A stretch of DNA of 37,857 nucleotides from NCBI GenBank assembly GCA_016212635.1, contig JACRFR010000045.1, positions 1-37,857 on the forward strand, written 5' to 3'. The DNA comes from Candidatus Liptonbacteria bacterium (GTDB lineage: Bacteria; Patescibacteriota; Minisyncoccia; UBA6257; 2-01-FULL-56-20). Positions 1 through 24,296 of this stretch are shown in pieces (within the stretch, counting starts at the first letter, position 1; every line of letters begins with the position of its first letter). The position numbers were made by a program, and so were the translations under genes. Under the pieces are notes generated by a model. That model was not told the origin of the DNA. It saw nothing but the letters and a program-made list of their open reading frames with translations, and ran no database searches.

Positions 1-480
1 GTCGTAGCCTTGGTGGGCCATTACCCCGCCAACTAGCTGATCGGGCCTAGGCCGATCTCGGAGCGTCTTGCGACTTTAATCGTACCTCGCTGCTGCAAGG
101 CACCGCTGATTTACGCAGATTATTACGCTGATTTACGCAGATGAATTTTTGAATCCATCCGCGGCTATCCGCGTGTATTTTCTATCTGCGTTTATCCGCG
201 GTGCTTCACAATAGTGAAGCACGATACCATCGGGAATTACCTCACCTTTCGATGAGCTATGCCCGACTCCGAGGTACGTACCAGGGTGTTACTAACTCGT
301 TCGCCGCTGCGCGCGCACAGCGCGCTCATCAGCGAATTACAAATTTATTACGAATTTACGAATTCGCAAATTCGGTTTTTATTCGTTATTCGTTGATAGC
401 GTGCTGCGCACGCACCGCTCGACTTGCATGCCTTATCCACGCCGCCAGCGTTCATCCTGGACCAGGATCAAATCCTCTGA
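1..480 (-). rRNA. rrs: 16S rRNA, 5' ~480 nt (gene continues past window start), with two large hairpin expansions
   Basis: The reverse complement of 440-478 reads AGAGGATTTGATCCTGGTCCAGGATGAACGCTGGCGGCGTG, the universal 16S 5' end. The reverse complement of 1-38 reads AGCTAGTTGGCGGGGTAATGGCCCACCAAGGCTACGAC (E. coli ~240-290). The span is ~480 nt versus ~290 nt in E. coli. Confidence 0.9.
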
Positions 481-604
481 AAAAGAAACAGTTTGGGACA
501 ACTGCAAAACTCTCTGCTCGCCCCGCTAAGCGGGGCTTTCCATGTGCGATTATCAAGCTGCAATCGAGACTAGAGAAAAATAGCGCGATTTCAGTCGCGG
601 GGTA

Positions 605-4546: not shown

Positions 4547-5979
4547 TATTTTTTGCCTTTAACGGTCTTTTCGACTATTTTTAAATGCAATTCTTCCAGC
4601 TGTTGCGGATCTACGGGACAAGGCGCGTCCATCACCGCGGTCTGGCCGCCGGAAGTCATCGGGAAGGCGATCACTTCGCGCAGCGACTCTTCGCCCGCCA
4701 AAAGCATGACATGCCGATCCAGGCCCAGAGCAATGCCGCCATGCGGGGGCGCGCCATATGAAAACGCTTCCAGCATGTGCCCCACGCTGGCTTCGATCTG
4801 TTCCTCGGTGTAACCCATGATGCGCAGGGTGGCGCGCAAAACTTCCGGGTCGTGGGCCCGGATACTGCCGCCGCCGACTTCATAGCCGTTACAAACCAGG
4901 TCATACTGGGTGGTCAGAATATCGCCGATATTCTTCCCGGCCAAATGATCCGTTAAATATTCCGGCATGGGCTGGCTGAACGGATTGTGGGTGAAGGTCC
5001 AGCCGCTCTTGCCGTCCCGAATCTCTGCCACATCCGCCCGATCCACTTTTTTGAAGAACGGGAAGTTGATCACCCAAGCAAAGGCCAACACTCCCTCCTT
5101 CTTTTCCTCTTCGGTCCGCAGGTCGAACTTATCCGCCTTGTACTTCTTCATCGCTTCGGCGTAAGCCACTACCGGGAACGGGTTTTGTTTTATTTTCCCG
5201 CCCACCTGCGTTACCGCTTGACGAACGACCTTTTCCACCATGGCCATAACATCCTGCTGCTCCACGAAACTCATCTCGATATCCACTTGGGTATGTTCGA
5301 AACCGCGGTCCGCTCGCAAATCTTCATCGCGGATACAGCGGGCGAATTGGAAATAGCGCTCCACGCCGGCAATCATTAGGAGCTGTTTATACTGCTGGGG
5401 CGATTGCGGTAAAGCGTAAAATTTCCCGGGCTGCATGCGCGACGGAACGATAAAATCCCGGGCGCCTTCTTTGGTTGCCTTGGTCAGCATGGGCGTCTCC
5501 ACTTCCGTAAAGCAGTTATCATAAAGGGCATCCCGGACGGCCCGAGCATATTTAGAGCGTAGCTGTAGAATCTTATTCAAGCGCGGGCGGCGTAGATCCA
5601 CGTAGCGATACCTTAAACGCACACTTTCGTCGATTTCATAGCCATCGCCATCGATCGGCAGGGGTAGAGGCTCGCTCGGGTTTAGGACGGTCAGGGCCTT
5701 GATCTCCACCTCGAAATTACCCGTGGGGAGATCCGGGTTCTCCATGCCCTTGGGCCGGCGCTTAACTTCGCCCTTAACGCGCACCGCCCATTCCGGCCGA
5801 ATTTTGCCCGCTTCTTGATAGAAGCTTTTCTCCGGCGTGATTACGCATTGCGCCACGCCGGAACGGTCACGCAAATCAAAGAAAATCAGTTTGCCATGAT
5901 CCCGCCGGGCATGGATCCAGCCCGCAAGCTCTGCCTCCTGACCAACTAGGCCAGTGATTTCATTAATGAGTGTGCGCAT
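4546..5979 (-). CDS. aspS: Aspartyl-tRNA synthetase, bacterial type but without the GAD insertion domain
   Basis: FFDLRDRSG, ALPQSPQQYKQLLM, FEHTQVDIEMSF and GGGSIR motifs are present. It is 477 aa. Its stop overlaps the downstream start as TAATG at 4544-4548. Confidence 0.9.
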   Translation of the reverse strand: MRTLINEITGLVGQEAELAGWIHARRDHGKLIFFDLRDRSGVAQCVITPEKSFYQEAGKIRPEWAVRVKGEVKRRPKGMENPDLPTGNFEVEIKALTVLNPSEPLPLPIDGDGYEIDESVRLRYRYVDLRRPRLNKILQLRSKYARAVRDALYDNCFTEVETPMLTKATKEGARDFIVPSRMQPGKFYALPQSPQQYKQLLMIAGVERYFQFARCIRDEDLRADRGFEHTQVDIEMSFVEQQDVMAMVEKVVRQAVTQVGGKIKQNPFPVVAYAEAMKKYKADKFDLRTEEEKKEGVLAFAWVINFPFFKKVDRADVAEIRDGKSGWTFTHNPFSQPMPEYLTDHLAGKNIGDILTTQYDLVCNGYEVGGGSIRAHDPEVLRATLRIMGYTEEQIEASVGHMLEAFSYGAPPHGGIALGLDRHVMLLAGEESLREVIAFPMTSGGQTAVMDAPCPVDPQQLEELHLKIVEKTVKGKK

Positions 5980-5995
5980 TCGGAAAATGACCGAA

Positions 5996-6021
5996 GAACT
6001 AATTAGTCTAATTATTCTAAG
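5996..6021. repeat. 26-bp sequence with an exact inverted copy at 17775-17800
   Basis: gaactaattagtctaattattctaag is the reverse complement of cttagaataattagactaattagttc. Confidence 0.85.
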
Positions 6022-6049
6022 GGGATTCTAATTCGTATATTCGTACTAA

Positions 6050-6078
6050 TTCGTATTTCGTAGCCAAATTGGTATAAT
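6050..6078 (+). promoter_or_regulatory. Candidate extended -10 promoter (TGgTATAAT) for the MgtC-family gene
   Basis: TG at 6070-6071 and TATAAT at 6073-6078. The -35 is weak (TTCGTA at 6050-6055). Confidence 0.4.
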
Positions 6079-7673: not shown

Positions 7674-8242
7674 TTAACCGGCAACCCATAAGCCGGATTC
7701 TGTCCCCTCTCGCCTACGGCGAGAACGCTGATTCACGCCGATTTCTGCGCCGATTCACGCTAATGGGCTAGTCCCCATCTGCACTTATCTGGGTGTTTTA
7801 TCCGCGTTAATCCGCGTCTAGTCTGCGCTTATCCGCGATCTTGTAGTAGACAAGAGAGTGATGATCATTTATCTGGGCCCTCGATTACTCTCGGGCTCAA
7901 GCGAGCACTCCGCGCGCGCAGCGCGCTCATCAGCGAATTGCAAATGAAAACCGAATTTACGAATTCGTATATTCGTAACCGATTCGTTATTCGTTGATAA
8001 CGTGCTGCGCACGCGACACGACTCTTGCGCCCAGTAAGGGTTTAGCCGTTTCACTTTCGCCTTACGGCGAAATTATTCCCGAAGGAATTCCCTCGGCTTT
8101 CGCCTCGGGACGTCTCTGTTCGCACCTCTAAGCTTGCGCTCGACGGCTGTTAGCCGCTACCTTTGGTCCCGCTAAGCGGGACCGGGTGTCCGGACTTTCC
8201 TATCCCGCCGAGGCGGGATCGATCATCTAGGTTGCCAGCTGC
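7674..8242 (-). ncRNA. rnpB: RNase P RNA (bacterial type A-like core) with ~170-200 nt of extra helices
   Basis: In RNA sense, GGAAAGTCCGG is the reverse complement of 8190-8200, GCTTGAGCCC of 7893-7902, and ACAGAATCCGGCTTAT of 7688-7703. P1 can form between CTGGCAACC (5') and GGTTGCCGG (3'). Confidence 0.85.
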
Positions 8243-8298: not shown

Positions 8299-8346
8299 TG
8301 TTCGAGGCCCGACCACGAACAGTAGTGTTCGAGGTCGGGCCTCGAT
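8299..8346. repeat. REP-like hairpin, GAGGTCGGGCC family (copy a)
   Basis: ttcgaggcccgacc ... ggtcgggcctcga inverted repeat, intergenic. Confidence 0.7.
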
Positions 8347-8355
8347 ACATGATAA

Positions 8356-9168
8356 TTAAAATTTAGCCTTCCCCGTCAACTCGATGATTCTCTTAAACTC
8401 CTTCGGCCTCAAACTGGCCGCACCGACCAGAACACCGTCAATTTCGGGGTGGTTTAAATAACTTTGTGCATTTTTGACGTTGACCGAACCGCCGTAGAGG
8501 ACGGGGGTGGTGAGTAGAGAGTAGCGAGTAGAGAGTAGAGATTTAATGGAACGGATCATTTCTACTACATCCGCAGGTTTTTCCAAACCTCCCCCTTCCC
8601 CCTCCTTAGCAAGGAGGGGCTTGGGGAGGTTGGTCGATATAGCCCAGACGGGCTCGTAGGCGAGGATTAAGCGAGTAGCGGGTGGGGAGTAGGGAGTAGA
8701 GTTGATACCGGAGAGACAGGCACGAAGTTGAGAGGCGACAAACTTCTTCGAGGCAGCAATCCCCTGCCTGCGAATTGCGAATGTTTCGCCGACACAGAGA
8801 ATCACCTTGAGGCCGGCCCGGAGCGCGGCTTGAACTTTTTTCGCTACCATCTCGTCCGTCTCCCCCATCGCTCGCCGCTCGGAGTGACCTAGAATGACGT
8901 ATTTTGCGCCAAGCTTTTTAAGCATGGCCGGAGAAACTTCGCCGGTGAATGGTCCCGATGCTACCTCTGGCCCGCAGTTTTGGGCCCCTAGGGAGAAGCG
9001 GGCAGAGAGTAGTGAGTAGAGAGTAGAGGAAAGAAATGGGAACGGTGGGCAAATAACCACTTTGGCGTGCTTGTTCTTATCCGCCGCCACTCCTGCCGCG
9101 CGGGCCAGCTTTTGGGCCTCGGCGTAAGTAGTCGGATTCATCTTCCAGTTAGCGATAATTAGTTTCAT
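8356..9168 (-). CDS. tpiA: Triosephosphate isomerase
   Basis: ANWKMN, GHSERR, YEPVWAI, YGGSV and GAASL motifs are all intact. Confidence 0.92.
   Translation of the reverse strand: MKLIIANWKMNPTTYAEAQKLARAAGVAADKNKHAKVVICPPFPFLSSTLYSLLSARFSLGAQNCGPEVASGPFTGEVSPAMLKKLGAKYVILGHSERRAMGETDEMVAKKVQAALRAGLKVILCVGETFAIRRQGIAASKKFVASQLRACLSGINSTPYSPPATRLILAYEPVWAISTNLPKPLLAKEGEGGGLEKPADVVEMIRSIKSLLSTRYSLLTTPVLYGGSVNVKNAQSYLNHPEIDGVLVGAASLRPKEFKRIIELTGKAKF
8586..8630. repeat. Nested 45-bp palindrome embedded in frame in tpiA
   Basis: aacctcccc..cccctccttagcaaggagggg..ggggaggtt encodes NLPKPLLAKEGEGGGLEKP, ~10 aa longer than the usual loop after the YEPVWAI motif. Confidence 0.7.
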
Positions 9169-23467: not shown

Positions 23468-23520
23468 TTTATAATTATCAACGAATTGCGAACTGGTTGC
23501 GAATTTTCGAATTCAATTCT

Positions 23521-23592
23521 TCGAGGTCGGGCCTCAAAAATCCCCGACCGTGCCCGCCGTAGCTTTTCAGCGTAGGCGGGAGGCCCGACCTC
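23521..23592. repeat. REP-like hairpin, GAGGTCGGGCC family (copy d, with nested second hairpin) in the rplJ-rplL spacer
   Basis: tcgaggtcgggcctc ... gcccgccgtagc ttttca gcgtaggcggg ... gaggcccgacctc. Confidence 0.7.
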
Positions 23593-23650
23593 TAACATTC
23601 AGATTCGTAGATTCGCAACAGATTCTTTATTCGTTGATGTTAATTATTAC

Positions 23651-24145: not shown

Positions 24146-24215
24146 GGGATTCTCTGCGAATTACAAATTTGTACTAATATACGAATGGGACCTATATTTT
24201 TCGTATATTCGTATG

Positions 24216-24292
24216 TTTTCGTATTTCGTAGCTAATTTGCGACCTTTTCGTATTTCGTAGCTAATTTGCGACCTTTTCGTATTTCGTAGCTA
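24216..24292. repeat. 29-bp tandem repeat, 2.65 copies
   Basis: ttttcgtatttcgtagctaatttgcgacc occurs at 24216-24244 and 24245-24273, with a partial third copy to 24292. Confidence 0.9.
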
Positions 24293-24296
24293 AAAA

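Follow-up and report, generated by a model that had tools for sequence, protein, structure and literature searches.

The closest described analogue of the repeat reported here is the RPE of Rickettsia, a set of dispersed palindromes of ~100-150 nt in a reduced genome (PMC2229807). RPEs are described there from intergenic DNA, from coding frames and from the genes for tmRNA and M1 RNA (Ogata 2002, as cited in PMC2229807). Like the RPEs, the element described here, which we call the CPR element, occurs between genes, in frame within protein-coding genes (for an aminotransferase and TsaD), a placement that is the hallmark of RPEs, and within RNase P RNA. Unlike the RPEs, it is also found in rRNA genes, is carried by Patescibacteria and other phyla, and includes a GC-clamped subfamily that is confined to stable-RNA genes and uniformly oriented within them. 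Sequence kinship of the two families is unlikely, judging from the word-array architecture of the CPR element. It gives the selfish palindromes of Rickettsia a parallel among reduced-genome bacteria of another, unrelated group. A sequence-only reading of this locus, in which the 16S rRNA and RNase P RNA genes were seen to share a hairpin, knew of no precedent for such sharing. For the element itself this holds, as our literature searches (for its sequence word, for palindromic repeats or MITEs in CPR bacteria, and for RNase P RNA in Patescibacteria) returned no description of it; for the phenomenon it does not, given the RPEs in tmRNA and M1 RNA genes (PMC2229807). What appears to be new is the family, its breadth among CPR bacteria, its presence in rRNA and its oriented, RNA-restricted clamped form.

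The CPR element also resembles the bacterial MITEs and REP hairpins (Correia/NEMIS, ERIC, RUP, REP/BIME), which are short, non-autonomous palindromes with stem-loop transcripts and lie mostly in intergenic DNA near genes (PMC2229807). It differs from these in that no TA or other target duplication, parent insertion sequence (IS) or RAYT was found for it, and in its arrays of 6-7-nt words. [quoted passage not shown] 2024, PMC11270868, which makes no mention of repeats, palindromes or RNase P). Like rRNA intervening sequences and these short inserts, the CPR element adds hairpins to the tips of variable rRNA helices. Unlike the short inserts as catalogued, it is shared with RNase P RNA, intergenic DNA and coding regions. 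Part of the short, ORF-less class can now be assigned to a concrete, searchable repeat family, and a single element remodels RNase P RNA and protein-coding genes besides rRNA. In cyanobacteria, a genome-wide family of short tandemly repeated repetitive (STRR) sequences reportedly occupies a peripheral helix of RNase P RNA with function kept; STRRs, however, are heptamer tandem repeats in P12 and do not form a bounded palindromic cassette that rRNA also carries. L7Ae/K-turn sites are a recognition motif common to archaeal rRNA and RNase P RNA, but the CPR module has no K-turn, and it comprises 105 nt of homologous sequence rather than a short motif.

The window, that is, the whole stretch of DNA analysed, is an entire 37.9-kb contig from a bacterium of the Patescibacteria (CPR). 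The AspRS encoded on it shares 66-68% identity with Pacebacteria/Woesebacteria proteins and 74% with its nearest relatives, and other proteins are CPR-like and reduced in appearance. Two stable-RNA genes, both on the minus strand, are of interest. The 5' part of a 16S rRNA gene (model positions 1-280) occupies 1..483 (Rfam RF00177, SSU_rRNA_bacteria, 169 bits, E 8.7e-50) and is truncated where the contig stops. An RNase P RNA gene of bacterial type A, 565 nt long, occupies 7674..8238 (Rfam RF00010, RNaseP_bact_a, 91 bits, E 3.5e-28); model positions 1-367 align in full, with the conserved P4/CR regions, and GGAAAGUCCGG and ACAGAAUCCGGCUUA are present. Both genes are hosts of two inserted modules, A and B. 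The 91 bits of the RNase P RNA fall below the Rfam gathering score of 100 because of these inserts and a reduced P13/P14 region, so default annotation would miss the gene. Besides pushing an RNase P RNA under the gathering score, the inserts have practical effects in the form of broken assemblies and distorted 16S V1-V2 amplicons.

Module A is the hairpin that had been noticed from the sequence. A repeat search of the window aligns 307-413 with 7908-8014 on the same strand, without gaps, at 84% identity over 107 nt; a gapless count over the wider segments 300-420 and 7901-8021 gives 93/121 matches, and blastn within the window gives E 2.3e-26. The likeness put by eye at 80-85% is therefore real and not near-random, and all four shared sequence blocks listed in the sequence-only reading are present. 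Comparison with six more copies from other organisms sets the boundaries of the module at 309-413 and 7911-8014. In the 16S gene, the GC-clamped palindromic element (309..413, minus strand; GCGUGCGCAGCACGCUAUCAACGAAU...AUUCGCUGAUGAGCGCGCUGUGCGCGCGC in RNA sense) extends the tip of helix 6 by an insert of 87 nt (model positions 78-83) and takes the place of the distal part of that helix. In the RNase P RNA gene, the Rfam RF00010 alignment places the second copy (7911..8014, minus strand) in the P15-P17 arm, where it makes up the P16-P17 arm distal to the P15 internal loop. Each copy is predicted to fold as one long imperfect hairpin, as the same reading had proposed, with energies of -61.8 kcal/mol (z -7.0) for the 16S copy and -52.9 kcal/mol (z -4.1) for the RNase P copy.

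A chimeric join or a collapsed repeat could in principle place the same sequence in two genes, and the contig does terminate inside the 16S gene, as might be expected of repeats that break assemblies. We nevertheless regard an assembly artefact as exceedingly improbable. The two copies differ at 17/107 positions and are embedded in two intact, correctly ordered RNA cores; the RNase P-AspRS synteny of the window is common to the independent contig of a relative (L001); and the arrangement recurs in independent metagenomes.

The AT-rich inner ~70 nt of module A are a near-perfect palindrome centred on GAATTC, with ACGAAT on one arm and ATTCGT on the other. Its core consensus is ATCAACGAATAACGAAT..TTACGAATTTACGAATTCGTAAATTCGTAA..ATTCGTTATTCGTTGAT, and its arms are arrays of 6-7-nt words spaced roughly 7-12 nt apart. 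A pattern in which only the 11-nt ends of this palindrome are fixed was run against species-representative genomes totalling 596 Gb. The scan yields at least 117 loci, with an estimated chance yield of ~34. Seventy-six of these loci contain three or more further ACGAAT-type words in the unconstrained interior, and the other 41 contain none, a number that fits the chance estimate. Among the matches listed, ~53 of the 76 family loci are, by record title, from Patescibacteria of many classes, and the rest include Omnitrophota, Bacteroidia and Treponema; the patescibacterial hosts among these matches include Saccharibacteria, Parcubacteria, and Sung-, Lipton-, Nealson-, Uhr-, Doudna- and Staskawicz-bacteria, and several single MAGs carry 2-4 copies on separate contigs.

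An nhmmer profile of this plain palindrome, built from 42 copies in other genomes, has five matches in the window. Two of these are the cores of module A, at 328..397 in the 16S copy (56.7 bits, E 1.4e-15) and at 7929..7998 in the RNase P copy (60.8 bits, E 7.4e-17). An intergenic palindrome without a GC clamp at 23477..23638 accounts for two more (E 8.8e-8 and 8.6e-7); its halves, 23477-23525 and 23592-23638, are parted by a nested GC-rich hairpin (23526-23591). The weakest match (24155..24229, E 2e-4) is a degenerate intergenic relative with TTCGTA words.

Plain copies are mostly intergenic among the matches listed. The commonest arrangement (39/72) is stop codon, element, start codon, and the median distance from the end of the palindrome to the next start codon is 9 nt among these matches. 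Such positions suggest either that insertion strongly prefers these sites or that the start-proximal copies have a role in expression, whether as promoter, as terminator or in translation. The orientation of plain copies relative to neighbouring genes shows no bias (13 vs 9). Some copies are translated. In locus L071, a class-V aminotransferase gene (Aminotran_5) contains two in-frame palindromes (L071:174-243 and 714-783), each read as HQRIxN..R.N.FVNS..IRYSLM, and in locus L112 a TsaD gene contains one (L112:4577-4646) in a different reading frame, translated LSTNNEFNTNIRIRKFGKDSLFAD; both loci belong to genomes other than that of the window. At the gathering score, no Rfam family matches the element positions in 18 loci, and for plain copies a relaxed search (E up to 1) gives only sub-threshold, spurious miRNA-hairpin look-alikes. 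A phage origin finds no support in IMG/VR, in which the palindrome pattern has only three matches.

Module A carries, in addition to the palindrome, a clamp of 15 GC-rich nt on each side (5'-GCGUGC-NNN-GCACGC ... GCGCGC-NNN-GCGCGC-3' in RNA sense). JGI metagenomes were scanned for this clamped form with a pattern that requires just 3-4 clamp bases per side. All five matches have the complete clamp, and all five are in stable-RNA genes. Together with the two window copies and a copy in a Sungiibacteriota MAG (L116), eight clamped copies are available, every one of them in a stable-RNA gene. Three lie in 23S rRNA: in the h63 area near model position ~1762 (L116), upstream of model position 2529 (L121), and at a site that we take to be h98 from its flanks, which match GCUGAAAGCAUCUAAGCACGAA... 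(L122). One metagenomic copy (L123) is in helix 6 of 16S rRNA, at a site identical to that of the window. The remaining two (L124 and L120) share a site in RNase P RNA (J5/7) that is bordered by the 5' strand of P4 (GGAAAGUCCGGACACCC) on one side and by P7-P9 on the other, and that differs from the P16-17 site of the window. The J5/7 site of L124 and L120 is also the exact position of a small additional hairpin in the RNase P RNA of the window (8165-8183; GGUCCCGCUUAGCGGGACC).

Read in RNA sense, each of the eight clamped copies opens with GCGUGC and closes with GCGCGC, and their flanks are unrelated; the clamp is therefore part of the element and not of the host helix. The consensus hairpin has 39 pairs, and at four pairs of the clamp both bases have changed in a compensatory manner. 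Invariant in the clamped form are one U.G pair, one bulged G and two A/C mismatches. The clamp arms are each self-complementary, so that the two clamps read as near-direct repeats. Pairwise identities range from 78 to 95% and track neither host RNA nor organism; the 23S copy of L122 and the 16S copy of the window, for instance, are 95% identical. The proposal that a hairpin element colonises variable helices of stable RNAs is thus supported by a bounded module at 16S helix 6, at three 23S sites and at two RNase P sites. It applies to the GC-clamped form; the palindromic core is genome-wide, mostly intergenic and even in frame in proteins.

The clamp and its boundaries also bear on the possibility that the helices lengthened where they stand, as short words slipped during replication with compensation on the other arm, and that 16S and RNase P RNA are alike because they converged on one favoured word. 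The arms are indeed arrays of short words, and other words occupy the same RNase P helix in relatives (TTGGAAYTT in L001, UAAUUUCUAA-type words in L124). However, the gapless 84% identity over 107 nt covers the non-repetitive GC clamp together with its mismatches, and eight copies have identical boundaries within unrelated flanks. In-place slippage cannot explain a likeness of this kind, and we consider it highly improbable.

Orientation relative to the host RNA is uniform in all eight clamped copies (~6 independent sites). As plain copies have no orientation bias, this polarity is specific to the clamped form. Together with the invariant non-canonical features, the orientation suggests constraint beyond neutrality, and both may reflect either function or an insertion mechanism specific to one strand. 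One reading, in line with the shared recognition or processing module offered as an alternative in the sequence-only reading, is that the clamped hairpin is a functional module that selection maintains in 16S, 23S and RNase P RNA. It would be recognised in all of them by one protein or nuclease, such as a factor for maturation, quality control or localisation, and it could still have originated from a repeat element. The restriction to stable-RNA genes in 8/8 copies, the uniform orientation as against the unbiased plain palindromes, and an invariant base and proximal stem below a drifting distal tip are all in its favour. But the sites vary between relatives, with P16-17 occupied in the RNase P RNA of the window and J5/7 in that of L124 and L120; some relatives lack the module (P17 of L001 has another tip); and the core is abundant outside RNA genes, including in coding frames. 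Also, with ~6 independent sites the uniform orientation has a chance probability of only ~0.03-0.06, and no candidate partner protein was identified. We therefore consider a shared functional module unlikely.

A related reading is that the clamped hairpin is a cassette specialised for stable-RNA genes, spread by a strand- or RNA-dependent mechanism and kept in the mature RNAs, where it would be a bacterial expansion segment that all of them share and that binds one partner. Such a cassette would have spread between 16S, 23S and RNase P RNA genes, both within genomes and across CPR lineages, and candidate mechanisms would be the insertion of single-stranded DNA targeted to hairpins, or insertion at the RNA level followed by reverse transcription. 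This, too, we hold to be rather improbable.

The two host genes share a second palindrome, module B, which the reading of a single shared module had missed. Segments 86-200 (16S) and 7709-7837 (RNase P) are 67% identical over 116 nt with gaps; blastn gives E 6e-11 when just these two regions are compared and 1.3e-8 when the search covers the whole window. The 16S copy (86..200, minus strand) is a palindrome of CGCGGAU/CGCAGAU words and lies in the V2 area, within an insert of 126 nt that caps helix 9 (model positions 188/189). The RNase P copy (7709..7837, minus strand) occupies the P19 position, where it follows the 3' strand of P2 and model position 335; the RNase P RNA of L124 has a homologous insert at the identical P19 site. 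Palindromes like module B occur in other CPR loci, in intergenic as well as rRNA regions. In a scan of viral contigs, a 15-base module-B word has 49 matches, which look like chance hits. Module B is probably a second element whose architecture and history are like those of module A.

Other palindromes of this type were seen around rRNA genes. The leader 5' of 16S is the usual place of rRNA processing stems, and in L123 a module-B-type palindrome with CGCGGAT/ATCTGCG words (L123:136-227) abuts the 5' end of the 16S gene. In the 23S gene of the Sungiibacteriota MAG, module-B-like palindromes at 2384-2465 and 2841-2903 lie in a large gap between 23S segments. This one gene (L116:1751-8000) thereby combines several kinds of insert: the clamped module, a group I intron (5578-5840) and the module-B-like palindromes.

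The inserts are not fixed among relatives. L001, whose AspRS is 74% identical to that of the window, has an extended P17 with a tip made of different words (TTGGAAYTT) and has no P19 insert, and the 16S gene of L123 has module A but not the helix-9 insert with module B. These differences show that inserts were gained or lost between relatives. In L124, P17 carries another word array (UAAUUUCUAA-type), module A is at J5/7 and module B is at P19. The P16-17 regions of L001 (L001:1-110) and L124 (within L124:315-1070) have different words on a similar GC base, and on sequence grounds the tip of the P17 helix appears to be exchangeable between lineages.

Several known identities were considered for module A and rejected. 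Rfam shows no group I or group II intron at either module (at the gathering threshold in the window, and at E up to 10 in the RNase P region), although it does detect the group I intron elsewhere in the L116 23S gene; moreover, module A has only 105 nt and no ORF, which speaks against an intron with a homing endonuclease. A hammerhead ribozyme is suggested by CUGAUGA and a GC hairpin in the 3' arm, but GAAA, stem III and an Rfam match are absent. For a K-turn or box C-D motif, UGAUGA is present, but the partner CUGA/GA is missing from the other arm. The architecture does not fit TIGR-Tas arrays.

Another identity has to do with what becomes of the element, and does not conflict with a dispersed-repeat origin. 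The ~45-bp hairpin may act as an intervening sequence that is excised by an RNase III-like enzyme without religation, leaving fragmented but functional 16S and RNase P RNA. The long, near-perfect duplex is consistent with such a fate, as is its position as an extra helix at the tips of variable helices (16S h6 and h9; RNase P P16-17 and P19; 23S h63 area and h98). Correia/NEMIS hairpins in Neisseria mRNAs, which are RNase III substrates, offer a precedent. Also, CPR rRNA inserts are reported to be missing from transcripts (Brown 2015, as cited in PMC9297842), and some of the short, ORF-less CPR inserts have been proposed to be RNase III-type intervening sequences (PMC11270868). The 23S sites in the h63 area and h98, however, are not the classical sites for intervening sequences (h25 and h45). 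Fragmented bacterial RNase P RNA has, to our knowledge, not been described. Excision is a possible fate that we entertain tentatively.

The explanation that we favour, and consider likely, is that module A belongs to a dispersed family of palindromic elements, comparable to RPEs or MITEs, whose clamped subfamily colonises the terminal loops of peripheral helices in stable RNAs. On this view, module A is a copy of a dispersed palindromic repeat that is functionally akin to Rickettsia RPEs or bacterial MITEs, and the clamped subfamily has been copied, in this genome, into the terminal loops of 16S helix 6 and RNase P P16-17. In a transcript, the element would fold back to form a hairpin of ~45 bp that stacks on the host helix, which would leave the catalytic core undisturbed; as a hairpin in a terminal loop would merely lengthen the helix, such insertions would survive. 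We infer that the inserts are near neutral and that, in mature RNAs, they are either tolerated as expansion segments or removed by a double-strand-specific RNase.

The distribution of the copies points to transposition-like mobility at the DNA level. A transposase, or an autonomous parent whose ends match, was looked for in ~0.9 Mb of loci without success, and a search of the same loci for separated left and right ends enclosing an ORF gave no convincing pair. The eight clamped copies and the plain copies are not flanked by any consistent direct repeat that would indicate a target-site duplication. Conservation of the sequence across CPR classes and other phyla is unusual for a selfish element and hints at a conserved trans-acting factor or function. 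The median of 9 nt to the start codon could mean that plain copies act in expression and are not purely selfish. The clamped subfamily, which is sharply bounded, uniformly oriented and invariant in its mismatches, provides a testable handle on how such elements are copied into helix tips, and on whether they are carried in the mature RNA or excised from it.

The window contains further repeats. The word vocabulary of module A recurs in intergenic regions at 24216-24293 and 6020-6075, which contain a 29-mer repeated three times in tandem (TTTTCGTATTTCGTAGCTAATTTGCGACC) and arrays of TTCGTA words that lie immediately upstream of a TATAAT-like box. A hairpin (GAGGCCCGACC.../...GGTCGGGCCTC) at 8302-8345, between the RNase P RNA gene and tpiA, recurs at 23526-23591, where it is the nested insert that splits the palindrome 23477-23638. 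This hairpin may represent another small repeat family, inserted in the second case at the centre of a palindrome.

The triose-phosphate isomerase ORF next to it (8356-9168, minus strand; Pfam TIM, 1.6e-67) has odd in-frame segments, especially at 8509-8541, 8599-8630, 8670-8702 and ~9010-9035. They include three blocks of CTCTACTC-type words (translated SSTLYSLLS, STPYSPP and SLLSTRYSLL), which, by their sequence, may be further repeat-derived inserts in frame, as may the odd segments in general. Directly after the AYEPVWAI motif, this ORF also contains a hairpin (CCCCTCCTTGCTAAGGAGGGG) that resembles one past rpmE at 967-998.
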